IMG/VR virus record: IMGVR_UViG_3300045915_000028
DNA from: a virus
Direction: 5' to 3' (one strand)
Length of the DNA stretch: 50,562 nt
Shown: positions 5,514-16,257 of the stretch, in pieces
Numbering within the stretch: the stretch's first letter is position 1
Layout of the letters: the number at the start of each line of letters is the position of its first letter
The notes under the pieces: generated by a model
Database searches by the model: none
Seen by the model: the letters and a program-made list of their open reading frames with translations, nothing else
Told to the model about the DNA's origin: nothing
Translations under genes and position numbers: made by a program

Positions 5514-5857
5514 CGATGACAGTCAAGCGTGGCCGCAAGCGCCGCGACTTCAGCGCCTGCGACATGGCGTTGGTGGACGAGATGGCCGTCGAATTGGCCT
5601 ACCGCGGAACCATGATGCGGCTCAACGCCCACGAACGGGTCGCTGCCGTAAGGATGATGCTGGGCCAGGTGCCCACCGGTGAGATCGCCCGCCGCTGCGC
5701 AACCCATCACAGGGAGATACACCGGATCGCGCGGGCCCTCGACACGATCCGCTGCCCGCGGTGCCGCCGGTACACATTCCACGATGCCGGTGTGTTGGGC
5801 CGCCATATCGACAAGCGGAGCGCCTTGTGCGTGATGTCGGGCCAGGTGATCACATGA
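5510..5857 (+). CDS. HTH DNA-binding protein with C-terminal zinc-ribbon-like CPRC (115 aa)
   Basis: RVAAVRMMLGQVPTGEIARRCATHHREIHRIARAL; ATGA overlap. Confidence 0.55.
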   Translation: MTMTVKRGRKRRDFSACDMALVDEMAVELAYRGTMMRLNAHERVAAVRMMLGQVPTGEIARRCATHHREIHRIARALDTIRCPRCRRYTFHDAGVLGRHIDKRSALCVMSGQVIT

Positions 5858-6825
5858 GCAATTCGCACATCGTGGCAGTGCACCGGCCGGGCGAACGCGG
5901 ATGGATCGCACCGGGATCCGAACAGCACCGAGCAATGATGAGCCCGTCGAAAGCCGCTGCGGTGCTGGGGTTCTCACGCTGGCAGTCCCCTTATGCCCTG
6001 TGGATGGAAATGTCGGGCCGCGTCGAACCGGATCCACCGAAAGACATCTTCGATGTCGGTCACGACGCCGAACCGTATATGGCGGCGCGGTGGCGGCGCC
6101 TTAACCCCGGGTGGCTGCTCTCACCGGATGAAGTCCAGTTCGTCATCGACCCTGAACATTTCGGGTTCCCCGCCGTGGTGACGTTGGATCGGCGTGCGGT
6201 GCGCGGCCGGGCACGCCGGGTTGTACAGTGCAAAATCGCGCGTGATCTCGACGACGCCCGCGTGTGGGGTGATGATCTCGCCGACAGTGATAGCGAAGCA
6301 CCCGCTGATTACGCCGCACAGGTTTTCACCGAAATGCTGTTCAGCGGGTACACCCGCCATGACGGGCATCTGATGGTCGCGGGCCCGTTCTGGGCGGAAA
6401 AGTGCTACCCGATCCGCTACGACGCGAACACCGCGGCCGGCCTGATCACCGAACTGCGCCGCTTCTGGGAATCACTGCGCCGTAACAAGCCTCCGCCGCT
6501 TGATGATTCGGTTGCCACCTACCAGACCGTACGCAAACAGCATCCCGACATCGACGCCGGCACCACGATCGAACTGGACGCCGGACTGGCAGCGTCCTAC
6601 CTCGAGGCGCTGGCCGAACAGAAGGACACCGAACGCCTGGTCCGCGGCCTGAAAACCGAAGTCCTCGACGCGATGGGCGACACCGAAACCGCGGTCTGCG
6701 GCCCCATCCGGGTCGCCAAACGCACCCCACACGCATCCGGCACGGTCGCGCTCACCGCGGCTCGCAAAACCACCGGAGCCGACATCCGAAACCTCTCCGC
6801 CCAACCCGAAGGAATGCCCGCATGA
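5854..6825 (+). CDS. RecE-like / YqaJ-family exonuclease (323 aa)
   Basis: SPSKAAAVLGFSRWQSPYALWMEM and D...QCK PD-(D/E)XK-like motifs; directly upstream of RecT. Confidence 0.7.
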   Translation: MSNSHIVAVHRPGERGWIAPGSEQHRAMMSPSKAAAVLGFSRWQSPYALWMEMSGRVEPDPPKDIFDVGHDAEPYMAARWRRLNPGWLLSPDEVQFVIDPEHFGFPAVVTLDRRAVRGRARRVVQCKIARDLDDARVWGDDLADSDSEAPADYAAQVFTEMLFSGYTRHDGHLMVAGPFWAEKCYPIRYDANTAAGLITELRRFWESLRRNKPPPLDDSVATYQTVRKQHPDIDAGTTIELDAGLAASYLEALAEQKDTERLVRGLKTEVLDAMGDTETAVCGPIRVAKRTPHASGTVALTAARKTTGADIRNLSAQPEGMPA

Positions 6826-7973
6826 CCGACACCACCACCGCCGAACACACCCACACCGACAGCGTGCTCGGCCCGGACCTCAACCGTGGCGGTGAACTCG
6901 TCGTCACATCGACGGCCGGCAGTGTCGCCGAGAACTTCGACGAATTCGAGCTCGCTGTGCGCCGCATGCTCGGCCTCGAGGACGCCTCAGACGGCGAGCT
7001 GCGACTGTTCCACCACGTGTGCCAACAGTCCGGACTGGACCCGTTCAACCGCGAGGTCTACATGATCGGCCGCAACACCGAAGTCGAGGTGTGGGAGGAA
7101 AGCCCCGACACCAAGCAGCGCCGCAAGGTGAAACGCTGGATCACGAAGTACACGATCCAGGTCGCGATCAACGGATTCCGGCGCCGCGCCCGTGAAATCG
7201 CCACACTGCTCGGCGCCCGCTACGAGGTCGGCGAACCGGTGTGGTGCGGTGAGGACGGCGAATGGCGCGAAGTGTGGGGCCAGTCGAAACCACCGGTGGC
7301 GGCGAAGTTCACGGTGTTCCGAGACGGCCAGCCCTACAGCTTCGTCGCGCACTACAACGAGTTCGTCCAGACGACCCGCGAAGGCAACCCGAATTCGATG
7401 TGGTCGAAGATGCCGGCCAACCAGTTACGTAAGTGCGCCGAGGTAGGCGCGATTCAGATGGCGTTCCCCGAGCAGCTCGGCGGCCTGGTCCTCGACGAGG
7501 CAGCCCAACCCGGCATCATCGACGCGAACGGGCCGGCGGTGCGGCGTGAGCCGACGAAAGCGCGTGGTGTAGCCGCGCTGACGCAGCGCGTCGCCACAGT
7601 CGTGAACGCGGAAAACATTCCGGAAAATATTCCGGAAAATATTCCGCCGGATGTCACACCCGCGGCCGCTATGTCCCCCGCTTCCCGGAAGAAGTGGCTG
7701 AACCGCATGTTCGCGCTGCTGGCTGAGGCCGAATGCCCGGATCGTGAGGATCAGCTGATCGTGATCACCGGACTCGCCGGACTCGATGAGCTGCCCGAGC
7801 ATCGCGACGCGCTCAGCGACGACGAGTTGCGGACTGTCGTCAACGCCCTCAACGCCGCCAGCAAAGAGGGTCGTCTCGGCGTGGTCGTCACTGATCTCCT
7901 CGAAACTTGGGTTGCCCGGCAAACCAACACCGACACCGACACCGCCGCAACCGAATCCGAGACGGAGAACTGA
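6822..7973 (+). CDS. recT: RecT-family single-strand annealing protein with extended C-terminus (383 aa)
   Basis: LFHHVCQQSGLDPFNREVYMIGRN, KYTIQVAINGFRRRA, WSKMPANQLRKCAEVGAIQMAFPEQLGG. Confidence 0.8.
   Translation: MTDTTTAEHTHTDSVLGPDLNRGGELVVTSTAGSVAENFDEFELAVRRMLGLEDASDGELRLFHHVCQQSGLDPFNREVYMIGRNTEVEVWEESPDTKQRRKVKRWITKYTIQVAINGFRRRAREIATLLGARYEVGEPVWCGEDGEWREVWGQSKPPVAAKFTVFRDGQPYSFVAHYNEFVQTTREGNPNSMWSKMPANQLRKCAEVGAIQMAFPEQLGGLVLDEAAQPGIIDANGPAVRREPTKARGVAALTQRVATVVNAENIPENIPENIPPDVTPAAAMSPASRKKWLNRMFALLAEAECPDREDQLIVITGLAGLDELPEHRDALSDDELRTVVNALNAASKEGRLGVVVTDLLETWVARQTNTDTDTAATESETEN
7610..7645 (+). repeat. 3 x 12-bp tandem repeat (GAAAAYATTCCG) encoding ENIPENIPENIP inside recT
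   Basis: Read directly; a local AT-rich island in a GC-rich gene. Confidence 0.9.
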
Positions 7974-8350: not shown

Positions 8351-8619
8351 TCGCCGTGCACATCAAACCCCGTACCGACGGCCGCTACGACATCCACATC
8401 CACGACCGCAGCCTCGACGGTGAGCTGCTCGTGTTCTCCAACCAGGGCTACGAGAATCAGGGCGACGCGGAACGGATTGTGCGTCGCCTCTTCGGATCGA
8501 CGAATCAGACCGTCGATCCCGATGGGAAGACAATTCCCGCGGTGAAACCCGATTTCGAGCACGTTGATCTGACCATCACCTACCTCGACGGCACCGGACG
8601 ACACGAGATGCTCCGATGA
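8347..8619 (+). CDS. Hypothetical protein (90 aa), possibly YegP/DUF1508-like
   Basis: GTGA overlap; RYDIHIHDRSLDGELLVFSNQGYENQGDAERIV. Confidence 0.5.
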   Translation: MIAVHIKPRTDGRYDIHIHDRSLDGELLVFSNQGYENQGDAERIVRRLFGSTNQTVDPDGKTIPAVKPDFEHVDLTITYLDGTGRHEMLR

Positions 8620-9893
8620 AACCCCAAGTGCAACTGGACAAACCACTCACAGCAGACCAGATCGCAGAGGTCCGGCGCATCGGCGACGAATGGTTCGACA
8701 TCGGACTGTCGACCGAACGGTGCGACCGGCCGGCAGCAGAGGCCGCAGTCCGGGCCGCATACCGCGCCGCGAAGATCGAGGAGCCACGGTTAGTGGTGTG
8801 GATGGAATCACCATTAGGTGGTGTCTTCGCGGCCGCCATGATCAAGGATCTCGGTAAGCCGGATAGCCAGCTCGGGGGCCAGCTCGGGGGCCAGCTCGGG
8901 GACCAGCTCGGGGACCAGCTCTGGGACCAGCTCTGGGACCAGCTCGGGGGCCAGCTCGGGGGCCAGCTCGGGGACCAGCTCGGGGACCAGCTCCGGGGCC
9001 AGCTCCGGGGCCAGCTCGGGGACCAGCTCGGGGACCAGCTCCGGGGCCAGCTCGGGGGCCAGCTCGGGGACCAGCTCGGGGACCAGCTCGGGGACCAGCT
9101 CTGGGACCAGCTCGGGGACCAGCTCGGGGACCAGCTCTGGGACCAGCTCGGGGACCAGCTCCGGGGCCAGCTCCGGGGCCAGCTCTGGGACCAGCTCTGG
9201 GACCAGCTCGGGGGCCAGCTCCGGGGCCAGCTCTGGGACCAGCTCGGACTCGAACTGTCACCCTGGTGGGACGCCTACTGGCTCGCCTACTACACCTGCG
9301 CCTTACCACTTGCCGGACTTGATAATTCGCCACGCCTCGAGACACTGGTAGCGGCCAACCGACTCCTCGGATGGTGGTGGCCGATGCGCGGTGCAGCGGT
9401 TCTCACCGACCGCCCCACCATCCTGTCGCGCGATCAACAGGGCCGGTTGCACAACGAGAGGGGGCCTGCGCTGGCCTATGCGGATGGCTACGCCTACCAC
9501 GGCTGGCACGGCACCCGCGTACCCGCCGATCTCATCGAAACCGGTTGGGATATCGAGCGGATCATGGCCGAACGCAACGCTGAGGTCCGGCGGTGCGCGA
9601 TTGAACGCATGGGCTGGGACCAGTTCGTCACGGCCGCTGAACTCACACTAGCTGACGAGGCCGACGATCCGGGGAATCCCGGCCAGGTGCTCCGCTTGTA
9701 TGACGTGCCCCGCACGGTGCTGGACCTACCGGTGCGGGTATTGGTGTGTGTCAACGCAACCCGGGAACGTGACGGCTCCCGGCACACATTCGGACTGACC
9801 GTCCCGACTGACTGCAAGACCGCGATCGCGGCCGCCGCATGGAGTTTCGGCGTCACAGCGAAGGAATACCGGCAGCTCGTCCGAGCCTGCTGA
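8616..9893 (+). CDS. Repeat-containing protein (425 aa): N-terminal domain, 32 tetrapeptide repeats, conserved-looking C-terminal domain of unknown function
   Basis: ATGA overlap; C-terminal [42 protein letters not shown]... looks globular. Confidence 0.75.
8865..9248 (+). repeat. 32 contiguous 12-bp tandem repeats G[G/A]CCAGCTC[G/T/C]GG, in frame, encoding ([GD]QL[GWR])x32
   Basis: Counted unit by unit from sequence and translation; most variation at unit positions 2 and 10; first unit starts AGC and last ends GGA. Confidence 0.95.
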
Positions 9894-9921: not shown

Positions 9922-10329
9922 ATGGCAACAACTTTGGAACTGACCGCCGCCACCGGCGTGGCTGTGCTCACCGACATTGACGACGTCGACATCCCCTTAC
10001 TCGCCGGTGTCCAACGTCAGGGTGATGTCCTGATCCGGCCGACAATCGGAATCCTCGCTGCCACACCCGTCCCGGCCGCTGGCACGCCGGTGGTGCGGGG
10101 CGAGAACGGCGGCAACACGCATGCTGTCTACGCCGCTGATGGGCCCGTGTTCTGCGACGTGACAGCCGTGTCGGCCACTGATCTGCGGGTCGCACTGTTG
10201 ACGGTCCCCGAGGGTTCCACCGCCTACCTGGGCCATCCCGAGCATGGCTTTCTCGGCATCGCACCGGGTTCGTATGAGGTGCGCCGGCAGCGGGAGATGG
10301 CCGAGGAAATTCGGATGGTCGCGGACTAA
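9922..10329 (+). CDS. Hypothetical protein (135 aa)
   Basis: GAAGGG RBS region then ATG; coding-like. Confidence 0.65.
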   Translation: MATTLELTAATGVAVLTDIDDVDIPLLAGVQRQGDVLIRPTIGILAATPVPAAGTPVVRGENGGNTHAVYAADGPVFCDVTAVSATDLRVALLTVPEGSTAYLGHPEHGFLGIAPGSYEVRRQREMAEEIRMVAD

Positions 10330-10791
10330 GTGAGTCTCACACTGACTGACTTGTTCGCCGGTGCGGGTGGTTCGACCACGGGTGCGGTGTCCGTGCCCGG
10401 TGTCACCGTAGCCATCGCCGCCAATCACTGGCAACTGGCCATCGACTCGCATTCGGCTAATCATCCTGACACCGAGCATGTGCGGAACAACACGAGCAAA
10501 GGTGACGGAGCGGAGATGGTCACCCCGGTCAGTGAGGTGGTGCGCACCGTCACCACAGCAGGGCATCAATCGCTACTAGCCGGTGGTCCGACGGTCGACA
10601 TCGACGACGTGTTGTTCCGCATGTTGGAGCCGCATGAAATCGCTGCGGCGCAGGACTTTCCGCGTGGATACACGATCAAGGGGAACAAGCGGGAGAAGGT
10701 CCGCCAGATCGGTGGAGCGGTGTGCCCGCCGTGCGCCCGGGATCTGGTCGGCGTGGTGGCTGAATCACTGGGGATGGCCCTATGCCCATAA
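10330..10791 (+). CDS. DNA (cytosine-5) methyltransferase remnant lacking the catalytic core (153 aa)
   Basis: Motif I DLFAGAGG at the N-terminus and C-terminal RTVTTAGHQ / FRMLEPHEIAAAQDFP / KVRQIGGAVCPP blocks are present; no PC(Q) or ENV motifs in between. Confidence 0.6.
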   Translation: MSLTLTDLFAGAGGSTTGAVSVPGVTVAIAANHWQLAIDSHSANHPDTEHVRNNTSKGDGAEMVTPVSEVVRTVTTAGHQSLLAGGPTVDIDDVLFRMLEPHEIAAAQDFPRGYTIKGNKREKVRQIGGAVCPPCARDLVGVVAESLGMALCP

Positions 10792-11147
10792 GACCAGAGA
10801 ACAAGTCGAGGTATCCGTCCGACTGGAAACAGATCAGCCACCGCATCCGCTTCATCCGCGCCGGCTCACGCTGCGAATGTGAAGGCGAATGCGGCCGCGG
10901 CACCCACGCGGGTCGATGCCCAAACATTCACGGACTCAACGCATACGGCACCGGATCTAAAGTCATTCTCACCGTCGCCCACCTGAACCACGCCCCTGAG
11001 GACTGCCGCGACGCCAACCTCCGCGCGATGTGCCAGGGATGCCACCTGCACTACGACATCGAACACCACGCCCAGACCGCCCAACGCACCCGCACCGCCG
11101 CACTCGAAGCCCAAATGGAACCACTGTTCAACATCGACGGGGGGTGA
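10782..11147 (+). CDS. HNH endonuclease-like zinc-binding protein (121 aa)
   Basis: CECEGECG...LTVAHLNHAPEDCRDANLRAMCQGCHLHYD. Confidence 0.6.
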   Translation: MPIRPENKSRYPSDWKQISHRIRFIRAGSRCECEGECGRGTHAGRCPNIHGLNAYGTGSKVILTVAHLNHAPEDCRDANLRAMCQGCHLHYDIEHHAQTAQRTRTAALEAQMEPLFNIDGG

Positions 11148-11152
11148 TAGCG

Positions 11153-12169
11153 GTGTCCTGGTTCTACGTCGACGACGGATTCTCAGATTCCAAACCCGTC
11201 GAAAGCATGTCCGACTGCATCGTCAAAGTGCCGCTGCGACTCGCGGCGTGCGGCCTGTGGGTACTCGCCGGAAGCTGGTCAGCGAAAGAGGAAACCGACG
11301 GACTGGTGCCAGCGTCGAAGCTCCGTCAACTGGGCGGCACCCCGACCGTCATCCGTGCTCTCGTCGACCCGGGACCGCTGCGAGCACCCCTGTGCGATCC
11401 GGAAAAAGGACCAGTTTTCGACCCAAAAACAGCCCAAGATTGGGCCGAAATCCGGGCCGAATTCCGGCCCAGTTCGGACCCGATCAGGTTCCGAAACTGG
11501 CCCAAATGGCAACGAACACATGCCGAAAATCAAGCACGGCGAGAAGTGGAAGCCGAGAAGAAGAGAACACAACGAGCGGGCCGAAAGATCAAAGGCCGAA
11601 ACGCTATAACCAGGGAAAACAACGAAACGTCCCCCGGGGACACCACAGGGGACACGTTAGGGGACAACGAAACCGATCAACGTTCAGCTGACGACATATC
11701 AGCAAACCCTGTCCCCACGGGACTCCCTCGGGACTCTCACGCGTACGCGCGCAGACCCTCCCCTCCCCTACCCTATAGACGTAACTCACCTACCGAAGAG
11801 CACTCACCAAACGTAGGCGCCGACGAGCGCGGCCTGACCCAGCCCATCACACCCAGCGCAAGCCGACTCGTCGCCACCCTCATCCCCGACACCATCCCCG
11901 CCGCCGTGCGGACCGCACTGCGCCTGCAGGCCTCCCAGCTCATCACCGCCGACTCCGTCGACCCCGACATCGTCGCCGAAGCACTGCGCCGCTGGCTCAC
12001 ACGACCAGGCGCCGGCCCCGGCCTGCTCCCATCACTGGCCGCCGACATCATCCGCGAAATCGCAACTCCCAACGGCGCGAAACCCCACAAGATGCGCACA
12101 CTCGCCGAACTCGCCGCGAAAACCCGCGCCGCCGAGCAAACCGCCGGCCGAAAGGAACTCACGCCATGA
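11153..12169 (+). CDS. Replication-organizer-like DNA-binding protein with low-complexity centre (338 aa, GTG start)
   Basis: N-terminal SWFYVDDGFSDSKPV... resembles phage replication-initiator N-termini; position upstream of the resolvase; function inferred. Confidence 0.4.
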   Translation: MSWFYVDDGFSDSKPVESMSDCIVKVPLRLAACGLWVLAGSWSAKEETDGLVPASKLRQLGGTPTVIRALVDPGPLRAPLCDPEKGPVFDPKTAQDWAEIRAEFRPSSDPIRFRNWPKWQRTHAENQARREVEAEKKRTQRAGRKIKGRNAITRENNETSPGDTTGDTLGDNETDQRSADDISANPVPTGLPRDSHAYARRPSPPLPYRRNSPTEEHSPNVGADERGLTQPITPSASRLVATLIPDTIPAAVRTALRLQASQLITADSVDPDIVAEALRRWLTRPGAGPGLLPSLAADIIREIATPNGAKPHKMRTLAELAAKTRAAEQTAGRKELTP

Positions 12170-12552
12170 TCGCCCCCTCCGACGCCATGCAAGTCATGCT
12201 CATCACGCAGGCCTGCCACCACCGCACCGCGCCACGCATGGACGACCACGAAGCGACAATCGCCACCGCGAAAATATGGGCCGAACTGTTCAACGAATTC
12301 CGCCTCGAGCTGCCTGACCTGATCGCCGCGGTCAAGAAACGCGCACTGACCCACGCGGACGCCCCCGAGCCCGCCGAAATCATCACGTTCGCCCGCGAAA
12401 TCCGCCGCGACCGCGACGCCCGCCGCGGACCCACACCGGACTACGAGCAGCTCTGCGAAAGCAAATCCGACGACGCCGCTGAACTCGCCGCCAACCGGGA
12501 TCGCCTCGCCGCGCTCATCACGCCACTGGCCGCGGCGAAGGCGCCGCGATGA
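12166..12552 (+). CDS. Hypothetical protein (128 aa)
   Basis: ATGA overlaps at both ends. Confidence 0.6.
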   Translation: MIAPSDAMQVMLITQACHHRTAPRMDDHEATIATAKIWAELFNEFRLELPDLIAAVKKRALTHADAPEPAEIITFAREIRRDRDARRGPTPDYEQLCESKSDDAAELAANRDRLAALITPLAAAKAPR

Positions 12553-13157
12553 ACTGCGTACTCGGATTAGACACATCCCTGACCCGCGCCGGTGTCGCCG
12601 CCCTCGATTTGGGGCCCGAAACGGGAAACACCGCCGCACTGATTCTGCTCACCGACGTCGGCCACGGCGGCTCCGACGCCGACGGCTACCCGCAACGCCG
12701 CACACGGATCCGCGCCCAGGTCCACTCACTGATCCGGATCATCACCGACCTGCAAACCAGCCACCGCATAGAGCTGGCCGTGATCGAAGGCCCGTTGTAC
12801 GGAATGAAAACCCTCCCAAGCTATTTCGACCGCGCCATCCTGTGGGGCGCGATCTGCGACTGGCTCGACCACCAACACATCCCGATCGCCGTCGTCCCGC
12901 CAGCCACCCGGGAGAAGTTCATCACCGGCGTCGGCTCCAAAGGCGACAAGAAGCGAGTGCTGGCCGAGATGCGGGCCCTGTGGTCACCTGATGCGCCGCG
13001 CCGCATCCCCAACCACGATGTTGCTGACGCGCTCGGCCTGGCGACCGCCGGCGCGATCCATTTGGGGTGGCGGATGCCGTTCCGGTTGCGTCGCTGCCAC
13101 GTCGAAAACGTCGCGCTTATCGCCTGGCCCCAAACCGCAGAAGCCACAGCCCCATGA
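12549..13157 (+). CDS. RuvC-like Holliday junction resolvase (202 aa)
   Basis: VLGLDTSLTRAGVA, ELAVIEGP, NHDVADALGLA acidic catalytic motifs. Confidence 0.7.
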   Translation: MNCVLGLDTSLTRAGVAALDLGPETGNTAALILLTDVGHGGSDADGYPQRRTRIRAQVHSLIRIITDLQTSHRIELAVIEGPLYGMKTLPSYFDRAILWGAICDWLDHQHIPIAVVPPATREKFITGVGSKGDKKRVLAEMRALWSPDAPRRIPNHDVADALGLATAGAIHLGWRMPFRLRRCHVENVALIAWPQTAEATAP

Positions 13158-13804
13158 ACGATTATCCGGCCGGAATGACCCTGCGTCCCATCGTCGTATG
13201 GCCCCGCAGCGAGACCCGCAACCGTGTCCGATCGACATTCTCCGCCTCGTGGTCGGCCACCCTCGACCTGCTTGACCGGGAACTGCATCACCTCGGCCGT
13301 GGTGGACGCCAAGCCGACTCCGTGCTGCAGATCGCGATGCGTGAACAGGACTTCCGTCTCGACGGCATGCCCCGCGCCAACGCCGTTCCCGCGCACCCCG
13401 GAGTGATCCTCAACATCGAATCCAACAAAGGCCCACTGTCGTTCCCCTGCGACAAGTTCGACCGCTGGCGAGATAACCTGCGAGCGGTCGTGCTGGGCCT
13501 CGAAGCGCTCCGCAAAGTCGACCGCTACGGCATCACCCCGGGCAACGAGCAGTACCGGGGCTGGCAGGCCATCGAAGCTGCGCCCGCCGAACCGGTCAAG
13601 ACGCTCGAGCAGCTCGTCGCAGTCCTGGCCGATTACGCCGGCCTGATCACCCCGATCGCCGATAGCTCACCGGAGAACCTGGCCCGCATCTACCGGACAG
13701 CCCGCGCGAACACACACCCGGACCGCTCCGGCGGGGATCGTGGCGCGTGGGACCGCGTTGAAAAGGCCGCCGAGCAGTTGCGGCGCATGGGGTGGCTCGC
13801 ATGA
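13154..13804 (+). CDS. J-domain (DnaJ-like) protein (216 aa)
   Basis: C-terminal IYRTARANTHPDRSGGDRGAWDRVEKAAEQL with HPD at 13715-13723. Confidence 0.6.
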   Translation: MNDYPAGMTLRPIVVWPRSETRNRVRSTFSASWSATLDLLDRELHHLGRGGRQADSVLQIAMREQDFRLDGMPRANAVPAHPGVILNIESNKGPLSFPCDKFDRWRDNLRAVVLGLEALRKVDRYGITPGNEQYRGWQAIEAAPAEPVKTLEQLVAVLADYAGLITPIADSSPENLARIYRTARANTHPDRSGGDRGAWDRVEKAAEQLRRMGWLA

Positions 13805-14115
13805 CCACCAACACCACCACATACGCGCTCGACATCGCCTGGCAGACAGGCATCCAACTACCGAACCTGATGGGCCCATTCGACACCGACACCGAAGCCA
13901 GACAATGGGCCCAACTGAACGTCTTCGACCGCGCGGCCTGGCAACTGCGCCACCTCACCTACCCCTACCTACAACAACCCCAAAGCTGCACCGCCCGCTA
14001 CACCGGCAGCATGCCCCAACTCGCCAACAACCCCCACTGCTGCCTGGCCACAGGCCACGTCGGTGACCACGTCAACACCACAGGCTACCGCTGGCCCAAC
14101 GAAACCCGCCGATGA
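13801..14115 (+). CDS. Hypothetical protein (104 aa)
   Basis: ATGA overlaps at both ends. Confidence 0.55.
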   Translation: MTTNTTTYALDIAWQTGIQLPNLMGPFDTDTEARQWAQLNVFDRAAWQLRHLTYPYLQQPQSCTARYTGSMPQLANNPHCCLATGHVGDHVNTTGYRWPNETRR

Positions 14116-15575
14116 CCGCCGCCGCCGTCGATTTGCACCGCTGCCAGCTCGGTCCCGACTGCCACGCCGCCACCATCGAAAACGGGCAACGCCACCCCGC
14201 CCACACCGAACACCCCGACACCGTGTGCGCCACCTGCTCCACCGCGATCACCCATGCGGTCGGCGACCTCGCCAACATCTGGCACATGCTCAACAACGCC
14301 ATCGGCGACCGCACCCGCCGCGGCGGCCAGAAAGTCACCACCAGCCGATCAGCGCCCATCAACATCAACACCGACGTCGACGCACTCAAAACCGCGATCG
14401 TCGAATGGCTCGTCATCGCCACCGCACGCATCTCCGAACAACTCAACATCGACGACCCGCAACCCCTCTGCCACAGCGACACCGAACACGCCCGCATCGT
14501 CACAACCTGCCTCCAAATCCTCACCCCCAACATCGACATGCTGCTCGCACTCCCCGAAGACGACATCGTCACCTGGGCAACCGAAAACACCGACTACGCC
14601 GGCGAATCCGTCCCACACACCACCGACACCGGCACCCACTGGCGGCCCAACACCGAAATCATCAGCCTCACCGGCCTACAAATCGCCCTACGCCTCGTCG
14701 ACCTGCGACGCAAAGCCCGCGCACTGCTCGCCCTCACCAACCCCGAAGACAAACTGTCCACTCCCTGCCCAGGATGCGACCAACGCGAACTGCGCCGCCA
14801 CCACGAACACCGGCCCAACGGCCGCGACATCGACCAAATCGACTGCGGCAACTGCGGATTGAACTGGCCATACGACCGATACCGGCACCTGTGCCTCATC
14901 TGGGTAAAGGACGACGAGATGGAACGCGAAAAACTCCAAGCACAACTCGACACCGAAAAAGCCCGCCGCCAACTCGCCGAATGGCTCCTAGCCAAACGCG
15001 AATGGCAACTCAGCCTCGCCCTCGACTGCCCCGACGTCACCGCCGCCGACTTCGCCGAAACGATCCTCACCGACCCCGCCATCCCCGAACCCGGACCCGA
15101 CGACTACATGACCGACAAAGACATCGCCGCCCTAGCCGGCGTCGCCGTCAACACCATCCGCTCCTGGGCCTCACGCGGCCACATCACCCGCCACACCGCC
15201 GACGACGGATCCACCCTCTACCTCGCCGCAGAGGTCTGGGAACACGCCAAAACCGTCGCCGGCGGCCGCAACGCCACCAAACGGCGACTCACCACCACCC
15301 GCAAAGCCCTGACCTGCGTGACAAACCCCGAAATGCGTGCAACACTGTCCGCGGCGGCAGAGCCTGCCCAAAAACCGGCCCAACCAATGACGCGCAACGT
15401 TGGACTCCACTGCGCCGGCTGCGGCGAACCCCTCAGCCTCTACCACGACGGCCGCACCCCAACCACCGTCACCGTCACTTGCGCGTGCGGACACCAAACC
15501 ACCTGGACGACACCGAACACACCAATGCCCATCAGGCCAGGATTCGGGCTAGCTGCCGGGAAGGTAAATCCCTGA
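14112..15575 (+). CDS. Large DNA-binding protein with MerR/excisionase-like HTH and several zinc-ribbon-like Cys pairs (487 aa)
   Basis: MTDKDIAALAGVAVNTIRSWASRGHI; CPGC...CGNC and CAGC...CACGH pairs. Confidence 0.6.
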   Translation: MTAAAVDLHRCQLGPDCHAATIENGQRHPAHTEHPDTVCATCSTAITHAVGDLANIWHMLNNAIGDRTRRGGQKVTTSRSAPININTDVDALKTAIVEWLVIATARISEQLNIDDPQPLCHSDTEHARIVTTCLQILTPNIDMLLALPEDDIVTWATENTDYAGESVPHTTDTGTHWRPNTEIISLTGLQIALRLVDLRRKARALLALTNPEDKLSTPCPGCDQRELRRHHEHRPNGRDIDQIDCGNCGLNWPYDRYRHLCLIWVKDDEMEREKLQAQLDTEKARRQLAEWLLAKREWQLSLALDCPDVTAADFAETILTDPAIPEPGPDDYMTDKDIAALAGVAVNTIRSWASRGHITRHTADDGSTLYLAAEVWEHAKTVAGGRNATKRRLTTTRKALTCVTNPEMRATLSAAAEPAQKPAQPMTRNVGLHCAGCGEPLSLYHDGRTPTTVTVTCACGHQTTWTTPNTPMPIRPGFGLAAGKVNP

Positions 15576-15970
15576 TGCAACACCCCGCCGCACCACTGCT
15601 CGCCGCCGACCTCGGCCGACTCCCACACACCAACGGCCGCGGCGAAAAAGGCTTCGTCCACATCCCCGGATTCATCACCACGACCGGAATGAGCCAAGAA
15701 CAAGCCGGCGAAGTCGGACTGCTGGCCCTAGCCATCGCCGAAGGCGTCATCGAAGACCTGCAAAGCCACGGCTACCCAGTCCAGCACGAAACCCAGATCC
15801 AAGCGCGCATCAACGCCGCCACAGCTCAAAAGCCAACACCCGAGGACATCACGCTCGAATGCAATCGCTGCCACCGACCCGCGGTCAAAGTCAAAGCCGC
15901 TGACCGAGCCAAGGTCAATGTGACCCTGCTCGTGGCCGGGCTGACCGTACACGCCGAGACATGCCGATGA
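15575..15970 (+). CDS. Hypothetical protein (131 aa)
   Basis: TGATG junction; coding-like tail of the long alternative-frame ORF 14063..15970. Confidence 0.55.
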   Translation: MQHPAAPLLAADLGRLPHTNGRGEKGFVHIPGFITTTGMSQEQAGEVGLLALAIAEGVIEDLQSHGYPVQHETQIQARINAATAQKPTPEDITLECNRCHRPAVKVKAADRAKVNVTLLVAGLTVHAETCR

Positions 15971-16257
15971 GCAACAAGAGCAAGCGGCGCCCGCCCATCC
16001 CGCCACGCCCACAGATCCTCAACGAGCAGATGCGCGAAAACCTGCTACGGCAGTTGGGTGACACGCCGCGCATACTCAACCGCGAACAGTCAATGTTCAT
16101 CGTCGGTGCGCTCGCCGCCAACCTTGAGCGGATGCTCAACAACCGCGAACAAATGCCGTGGGTCAGCGCCTCGATCGACAAACGCAGCGACGGATTCAGC
16201 CTGCACGTGCAGATCGTCGAACCCACAACGGACGTAGAGGCAACAGTGCTGACATGA
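15967..16257 (+). CDS. Hypothetical protein (96 aa)
   Basis: ATGA overlap (alternative ATG 15961). Confidence 0.55.
   Translation: MSNKSKRRPPIPPRPQILNEQMRENLLRQLGDTPRILNREQSMFIVGALAANLERMLNNREQMPWVSASIDKRSDGFSLHVQIVEPTTDVEATVLT

Follow-up and report, generated by a model that had tools for sequence, protein, structure and literature searches.

Analysis of a 50,562-nucleotide stretch of viral DNA (IMG/VR record IMGVR_UViG_3300045915_000028, hereafter the window) revealed a real protein-coding minisatellite inside an early gene of the DUF6745 family. The gene (8616-9893, plus strand), defined by the open reading frame (ORF) list, Pfam, homologues and an AlphaFold2 (AF2) model, encodes a 425-aa protein with three consecutive parts: (i) an N-terminal globular domain (residues 1-83, nucleotides 8616-8864), (ii) a tetrapeptide array (nucleotides 8865-9248), and (iii) a C-terminal DUF6745 domain (residues 212-425, nucleotides 9249-9893). 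It is followed on the same strand by a conserved partner gene.

The tandem array and its gene

The array comprises 384 bp on the plus strand, that is, 32 head-to-tail 12-bp units that are translated in frame into ([SGD]-Q-L-[GWR])x32. Direct reading of positions 8400-9800 revealed no indels in the array, and Tandem Repeats Finder (TRF) reported a period of 12 at 8867-9247 with 31.8 copies, 92% matches, 0% indels, and a score of 587. The pattern CCAGCTCNGGGNC has 31 occurrences inside the array; with at most one mismatch allowed, the window as a whole contains 34 occurrences, compared with an expectation of 2.08, and none of 100 shuffled sequences reached this number. Relative to the unit consensus GACCAGCTCGGG, position 2 (G/A) and position 10 (G/T/C) each differ in 13 of the 32 units; beyond these sites, only the terminal units depart from it, the first with A at position 1 and the last with A at position 12. 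These results agree exactly with an earlier note made from the letters of the window and its ORF list, which had described 32 uninterrupted units at 8865-9248, in frame within the 425-aa ORF, with variation at unit positions 2 and 10 except in the first and last units. The same note counted four main unit types. This count is correct in the QL-xx register, where exactly four DNA unit types are present (QLGD, 12 copies; QLWD, 7 copies; QLGG and QLRG, 6 copies each), but not in the [GD]QL[GWR] register that it used, where there are six internal peptide types and two terminal variants.

In the window array, tryptophan is always followed by aspartate and arginine by glycine. As a universal rule this pairing was rejected: it is true in the clade of the window and in a few other arrays (L037, L093) and fails elsewhere. 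The G+C content of the array is 76%, compared with 65.4% for the window, and its encoded peptide has a net charge of about -13 (19 Asp and 6 Arg residues). The longest exact repeat inside the array is 59 bp; thus, it can be resolved by reads or k-mers longer than 59, for example with ordinary reads of 100-250 nt and a large k. The ORF list also contains the antisense (AGPR)n ORF mentioned in the earlier note (167 aa; 8842-9345, minus strand). Since both flanking domains show family conservation in the plus-strand frame only, this ORF is probably a by-product of the repeat and not a gene. The coding strand of the array carries G4-G5 runs every 12 nt, with G-quadruplex potential; such runs are absent from the arrays of relatives that use other DNA words, and therefore this potential is not family-wide.

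The ATG codon of the DUF6745 gene overlaps the stop codon of an upstream 90-aa ORF (ATGA). The N-terminal domain, delimited by AF2 confidence and conserved columns, is conserved with the family and ends in a W-M-[DE]-S-P-L-G-G motif and a helix; its conserved columns in an alignment of 105 sequences are L31, T33, D37, R38, E42, P66, and G69. In some relatives, a second, diverged type of N-terminal domain is also found 5' of the arrays. The C-terminal domain belongs to the Pfam family DUF6745 (PF20530): its score of 130.7 bits exceeds the gathering cut-off of 27 (E = 5.6e-38), and residues 219-420 align to profile positions 14-202 of 206. Its invariant residues in the same alignment are R266, H279, E323, R325, N380, and G387, and the presence of R266, H279, E323, R325, and N380 among them would fit a catalytic or ligand-binding site.

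The AF2 model of the whole protein, built with the 105-sequence alignment, has a mean predicted local distance difference test (pLDDT) score of 83 and a predicted template modelling (pTM) score of 0.68. The pLDDT values are about 81-98 for residues 1-80 and mostly 86-98 in the C-terminal domain, with about 75 at the last few residues. The array is modelled as two long helices (residues 101-146 and 155-207) with a turn near the array midpoint, at pLDDT 46-69. At such confidence, a helical hairpin that extends from one globule is a hypothesis only, as is the helical or solenoid rod suggested in the earlier note, and the array, which contains about 25% Gly, could equally be disordered. A Foldseek search of the model against the PDB yielded no fold match (best E = 0.8), and the sole neighbours in BFVD were other DUF6745 proteins, including one from the Microcystis phage Ma-LMM01. 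When the whole protein was searched by sequence against the PDB, only low-complexity hits on the repeat were obtained; an NCBIfam search gave no useful match, and PADLOC-DB 2.0 gave none. A literature search on DUF6745 found no paper. We also found no description that covers the N-terminal domain, the array, or the partner gene, the Pfam model being that of the C-terminal domain only.

Turnover and polymorphism of the arrays

Units were counted in 85 DNA-pure arrays of the family, and per-position statistics were obtained for 76 arrays (2,470 units). The unit counts were taken from assemblies and not from sized amplicons, and the reads and platform behind the Joint Genome Institute (JGI) contigs are not visible. 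The 85 arrays contain 5-63 units; the median is 33, and the mode lies at 30-40. The window and its near-identical assemblies have 32 (window), 32 (L087), 24 (L002), and 22 (L086) units. In the JGI contig L002, the flanks on both sides of the array are 99.2-99.7% identical to the window over approximately 9.3 kb, and the encoded protein (P0001) has N- and C-terminal domains that are 100% identical to those of the window protein, with 24 versus 32 units between them. The arrays of L087 and the window have the same length and two unit-type differences, 29 of 31 units being the same in type and order, and L086 corresponds to L087 without a clean block of 10 units and with two further unit changes. 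A second set of close relatives was observed among prophages of isolate genomes in the SAV[GDYR] clade, where L039 has 56 units and L044 has 39 units in quite different orders between flanks that are 99.8-99.9% identical; a third prophage, L043, has only 5 units, and its right flank is 100% identical to that of L044. Through gain, loss, and reshuffling of units, the arrays evolve far more rapidly than the DNA on either side of them. The earlier note had predicted an array prone to slippage or recombination with a variable copy number, and this is what we observed in both sets of relatives (flanks 99.2-99.7% and >99.8% identical, respectively).

Assemblies built with k=31 systematically break the array locus: in several public runs, k=31 (Logan) contigs end exactly at the left (L173-L174) or right (L088-L091) edge of the array. 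The runs with such breaks include SRR24888485, SRR24888351, SRR24888478, SRR24887387, and SRR24888489.

Polymorphism within arrays was measured, for each of the unit positions 1-12, as the fraction of units that depart from the consensus of their own array. In the 76 arrays, this fraction is highest at position 10 (0.50), followed by positions 2 (0.32) and 11 (0.145), and it does not exceed 0.034 at any other position, including the third-codon positions 3, 6, 9, and 12. The polymorphic sites are thus first or second codon positions of two residues, x1 and x4, that flank an invariant polar-aliphatic pair, Q-L in the window and Q-V, S-V, A-V, or N-L in relatives. The first of these residues is G/D, A/D, or S, and the second is either G/W/R encoded by NGG codons or G/D/Y/R/H encoded by NNC codons. 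Synonymous differences are observed between lineages (CTC, CTG, GTC, or GTG; GAC or GAT; CAG or CAA). The confinement of variation to x1 and x4 together with uniform synonymous sites is the strongest signal in the arrays and, like the partner gene, was missed in the earlier note. As codons are uniform within an array and different between lineages, concerted evolution by slippage or unequal recombination is implied. On the other hand, neutral drift would leave synonymous polymorphism no less often than non-synonymous, and synonymous polymorphism is nearly absent; therefore, we infer from these patterns that selection probably keeps a mixture of residues at x1 (G/D) and x4 (G/W/R).

The gap between the N-terminal and DUF6745 domains is occupied by other tetrapeptides in other lineages, namely [DG]QV[WGR], [DA]SV[GWR], SAV[GDYR], [DG]AV[GHRD], and [DA]NL[RGW]. 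Most of the DUF6745-family members that were examined carry such arrays, and a minority of the family representatives have other inserts or very short arrays instead. One homologue with a short array, P0004 (308 aa), has 3 units. Degenerate period-4 arrays, in which the DNA repeat has decayed, keep the pattern with an aliphatic residue at position 3 and W, G, or R at position 4. They occur in some proteins and in many chromosomal copies (Nonomuraea, Actinomadura, and others), whereas the arrays of nearly all viral contigs are DNA-pure. Comparison of these sequences indicates that the conserved feature is the peptide pattern and not the DNA word. The retention of this pattern across differing DNA words suggests a role at the protein level and argues against a DNA or RNA element.

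Degenerate arrays with a unit purity of about 0.6 were found in L124-L163, which come from chromosomes of Nonomuraea, Actinomadura, Dactylosporangium, and similar genera. Around these loci, four ORF families that lack Pfam matches are conserved in a clade-specific manner. This suggests that the cassettes in L124-L163 are resident copies whose fast evolution has ended.

Partner gene, genomic setting, and analogous systems

The partner gene (9922-10329, plus strand) is preceded by a GAAGGGA ribosome-binding site and encodes a 135-aa protein that was characterized by a match to phrog_27831 (function unknown; 6e-39), an alignment, and an AF2 model. Of 85 viral loci, 72 have the partner gene next to the DUF6745 gene and in the same orientation, as do 75 of 80 genome loci; clustering places it adjacent in 164 of 170 loci. 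The pairing is also found in Paraburkholderia, Nitrospira, Bryobacteraceae, and Anaerolineales. When the 170 loci were clustered, no third conserved gene was detected apart from clade-specific neighbours without Pfam matches. Thus, the unit of inheritance is a two-gene cassette. The alignment of partner proteins contains the invariant motifs QGD, GE..G.TH, H.EH, and RQRE, with H67, H105, E107, and H108 among the invariant residues, and the AF2 model is beta-rich (pLDDT 84.5). The searches gave nothing below E = 0.01 in Pfam, no match in PADLOC-DB 2.0, nothing usable in a sequence search of the PDB, and no Foldseek match there apart from weak cupin-like rows at probability 0.03. In the viral contig L018, copies of the partner gene are located on both sides of the DUF6745 gene (5597-5989 and 7186-7578).

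The DUF6745 gene belongs to a plus-strand operon and lies directly 3' of the genes for a YqaJ-like exonuclease (5761-6825, plus strand; PF09588 at 5e-08) and a RecT recombinase (6822-7973, plus strand; PF03837 at 4e-17), as expected from its description as an early gene in the earlier note. Further along the window there are virion genes resembling those of Gordonia and Mycobacterium phages, and a tyrosine integrase is encoded at the far end on the opposite strand. With these neighbours, the locus represents an early recombination/replication module in a temperate, Mycobacterium-type phage of actinobacteria. The named homologues of a neighbouring gene are almost all from Mycobacterium, and the best match of the 425-aa protein in isolate genomes is from Mycobacterium sp. 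BK086 (62% identity).

Among 50,697 phage records, relatives were found only in the M. abscessus prophage prophiGD102-1 and in one uncultured phage. The prophiGD102-1 relative, gp38 (482 aa), has approximately 46 units, and its cassette is located among the Gam, ERF, and RepA replication genes. Relatives were also detected in 288 IMG/VR viral contigs; at least 820 homologues were recognized among the 8,000 candidates scored, and the C-terminal domain alone is represented in 7,401 clusters at 50% identity (E <= 1e-3). In a close relative with 12 units and flanking domains that are 82-85% identical (L004/L005), genes for an ADP-ribosylglycohydrolase and an Mtd_N-domain protein are found a few genes upstream.

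The closest known parallel is gene 54 of the mycobacteriophage Tweety. Tandem 12-bp repeats are present in 48 copies in Tweety gp54, 26 copies in Che8 gp57, and 15 copies in PMC gp51 (Pham et al. 2007, PMC2884959). The gp54 array has two invariant alanines and forms a G+C spike, its gene is among the early right-arm genes, and its codons have variable first and second positions but an invariant third one, which was considered "consistent with selection for variation" (PMC2884959). According to later work (Dedrick et al. 2017, Nat Microbiol 2:16251, as summarised in the reviews PMC9262239 and PMC8549241), defence-escape mutants on Phrann gp29/gp30 or MichelleMyBell lysogens gain or lose gp54 repeats, and the change in repeat number "tunes" the counter-defence activity of gp54 by a mechanism that "remains obscure". 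Hence gp54 is a characterized phage protein with a tetrapeptide array, contrary to the statement in the earlier note that none was known, although its tetrapeptide and flanks are different.

We recomputed the gp54 array as [SY]AA[GWQ] x48-49 and obtained mismatch counts of 11, 10, 1, 0, 0, 0, 0, 0, 0, 15, 4, and 1 at the successive unit positions. Comparison with the window revealed several common features: (i) both genes carry an in-frame 12-bp array in mid-gene and lie in an early region, with two fixed and two variable residues per unit, (ii) written as [SY]-A-A-[GWQ], the gp54 unit has the same x1/x4 layout and the same choice of G or W at x4, (iii) third-codon positions are uniform and first and second positions vary, as in the other family arrays, (iv) the G+C content of the array is 79% in gp54 and 76% in the window, and (v) copy number differs between close relatives. 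The invariant pair, in contrast, is Ala-Ala in gp54 and Gln-Leu in the window, and the flanking domains gave no sign of homology: hhalign of the 105-sequence profile with gp54 returned a probability of 0.07% (E = 0.7), gp54 has no Pfam domain and no DUF6745, and tblastn of the window protein against the 50,697 phage records did not match Tweety. A homologue of the partner was not seen in the Tweety region, where gp55 was scanned against Pfam only. Moreover, gp54 occurs in only a few Cluster F phages, in contrast to the thousands of clusters that make up DUF6745, and counter-defence has been demonstrated for gp54 and would be an extrapolation for the window protein. Because the flanking domains are unrelated, the window gene is not a member of the gp54 family; judged by sequence, it is an analogue with the same build that appears to evolve alike.

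Several other systems were compared with the array. Pentapeptide-repeat proteins such as MfpA and Qnr form a right-handed quadrilateral beta-helix, are acidic, and are common in Actinomycetota. They resemble the window array in having a short repeat with a central Leu or Phe flanked by Asp, Gly, or polar residues, but they are not DNA-homogeneous minisatellites. Membership in this family (PF00805) was rejected, as the period in the window is 4 and not 5 and no Pfam match was obtained even at E <= 1. Variable region 2 of bbp36 in the Bordetella phage BMP-1 has a 24-bp unit composed of a 19-bp repeat and a 5-bp spacer (Liu et al. 2002 and 2004, as cited in PMC2884959). Like the window array, it is an in-frame tandem repeat in a phage gene, non-essential in this case, and its copy number differs between isolates (9-20); unlike the window array, it has a 24-bp unit and belongs to a different protein of unknown function. 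In bacterial contingency loci, for example, the tetranucleotide repeats of Haemophilus, slippage gives rapid, reversible, and heritable variation (PMC2651432). In these loci, frameshifts or altered promoter spacing turn genes on and off, whereas the window array changes in length and composition only. The contingency-type locus suggested in the earlier note therefore does not apply in the strict on/off sense: with a 12-bp unit and 0% indels, whole-unit changes always keep the frame, and all relatives are in frame across 5-63 units. A target of a diversity-generating retroelement (DGR) was also rejected, since a template copy of the repeat is absent from the rest of the window and the observed base changes, G/A and G/T/C, are not adenine-specific; the A of CAG is invariant in the arrays, and a reverse transcriptase was not searched for exhaustively.

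Possible role of the array and other features of the window

Our best guess is that the array provides a two-gene conflict cassette with a module whose length and specificity can be tuned. We propose that it forms a module of adjustable length and composition between two conserved domains, and that it would set how these domains, or a projecting arm, meet a variable target. Array variants would be supplied by slippage and unequal recombination, to which the RecT and YqaJ proteins of the phage itself could, speculatively, contribute. If Tweety gp54 is a guide, a change in the number or order of units would then retune the protein against this target, which would most likely be a defence system of the host or of a prophage, and the DUF6745 protein would probably act with the linked 135-aa partner early in lytic growth. 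The tunable spacer envisaged in the earlier note is consistent with the published account of gp54, taken as an analogous system (PMC9262239, PMC8549241). We lean towards this package as a whole, namely an adjustable array with slippage and recombination variants in a conflict cassette, with considerable doubt that mostly concerns function.

Several observations weigh against this interpretation. The flanks of gp54 are unrelated, so the functional analogy is drawn from the array, whose own structure is uncertain at the AF2 confidence given above. Neither protein of the cassette matches PADLOC or any PDB fold, and the literature search on DUF6745 yielded no experiment on any member of the family. 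The degenerate chromosomal arrays indicate that the protein can persist without ongoing variation. Finally, some differences in unit count could be assembly errors, as k=31 contigs break at both array edges and the sequencing technology cannot be checked.

Among the alternative explanations, a neutral flexible linker would be a disordered spacer in which slippage has no functional consequence and the unit mixture is produced by drift. The low AF2 confidence in the array is consistent with such a linker, as is the fact that repeats of this kind are typical of unstructured proteins (Pham et al., PMC2884959), and there are relatives that have 2-5 units with otherwise intact domains and many family representatives with degenerate or different inserts at this place. 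Nevertheless, we regard it as unlikely. Drift does not agree with third-codon positions that vary in approximately 1-3% of units as compared with 32-50% at positions 2 and 10 over the 76 independent arrays; in each lineage the variation falls on the same two residues, irrespective of the tetrapeptide, and pure arrays cluster around 30-40 units (median 33). A prophage defence or exclusion cassette of the toxin-antitoxin or abortive-infection type, with the array serving as a sensor of invading-phage proteins, seems rather improbable on balance. The location of the pair in an early lytic operon beside RecT and YqaJ, away from the integrase or immunity region, and that of the prophiGD102-1 copy among replication genes argue against it, as does the lack of PADLOC matches for both proteins. 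Its appeal comes from the strict linkage of two genes that move among mosaic prophages and chromosomes, from the invariant His/Glu motifs of the partner, which may suggest a metal site or catalysis, and from the invariant R, H, E, R, and N of the DUF6745 domain. In addition, variable repeat sensors are common in immune proteins.

Short-read assemblers that collapse or expand repeats might have produced the array or its length differences. The k=31 contigs of several runs that stop at the array edges point in this direction, and so do the JGI contigs, whose reads and platform are not visible. An artefact is nonetheless very improbable: a longest exact internal repeat of 59 bp leaves a unique path for longer k-mers and reads, the independent sample L087 reproduces 32 units, and the difference between L086 and L087 is a clean 10-unit deletion with two unit changes. 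Furthermore, similar arrays are present in hundreds of contigs, in isolate genomes and in complete chromosomes, and the gp54 arrays come from Sanger-era phage genomes (PMC2884959). We give hardly any weight to targeted mutagenesis at x1 and x4 (e.g., by a DGR) or to a function of the repeat as DNA or RNA, whether as a recombination hotspot, a G-quadruplex, or an array of binding sites. The site-restricted variation, the plus-strand G4-G5 runs every 12 nt in the window, the RecT and YqaJ genes just upstream, and the Mtd_N-domain gene near the array gene of one relative are compatible with these mechanisms. However, mutagenesis of this type is at odds with the missing template copy and with varying bases that are not adenine-specific, and a nucleic acid role is at odds with other lineages, where DNA words without G-runs encode the same peptide pattern, and with degenerate arrays, in which the peptide periodicity outlasts the DNA repeat.

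To return to the tunable module of a conflict cassette, gp54 is the one case that we found described in which a phage retunes counter-defence by gain and loss of tetrapeptide repeats. The same design and selection signature are now observed in an unrelated and far larger family with two well-folded flanking domains and a partner. Three aspects appear to be new: (i) DUF6745, an unstudied and much larger family, commonly shows this design, (ii) the same selection signature recurs across dozens of independent lineages, and (iii) an obligate partner gene is linked to the array gene. If our interpretation is true, it would provide a second, much more abundant system for working out how such arrays act and the first testable role for a domain of unknown function with thousands of members. 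It would also flag loci that are systematically mis-sized or broken by short-read assemblies in actinobacterial prophages, including those of Mycobacterium abscessus.

A broader proposal, possible but doubtful in our opinion, is that DUF6745 and its partner constitute a very widespread, undescribed phage conflict cassette in which the x4-x1 di-residues, together with the number of units, set target specificity. This cassette would extend over thousands of protein clusters in Actinomycetota and, beyond them, to Paraburkholderia, Nitrospira, Acidobacteriota, and Chloroflexota. The di-residues would be GG, GD, WD, or RG in the window, and the array would be a self-homogenizing "protein minisatellite". 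If this broader proposal is true, tuning of the gp54 type would be a general phage strategy, reused convergently or modularly beyond one cluster.

Other features of the window were noted in passing. The RecT-like gene contains a second in-frame 12-bp repeat at 7609-7646 (plus strand), CGGAAAATATTC x3.2 with 96% matches, which is unusually A+T-rich for this genome and specifies (ENIP)x3 within the linker that follows the RecT domain. Downstream of the partner gene, a 153-aa ORF (10330-10791, plus strand) resembles the C5 cytosine methylase family in a match limited to the C-terminal end of the profile (positions 270-319), and a 121-aa ORF (10782-11147, plus strand) has weak matches to HNH endonucleases (ZorE-like). 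The region 12001-16000 is characterized by strong strand asymmetry, with a GC skew of -0.18 to -0.30 and an AT skew of up to +0.39. It includes two long overlapping ORFs (14063-15970 and 14112-15575), and the 487-aa product has Cys-rich zinc-ribbon-like motifs and a weak HTH_17 match.

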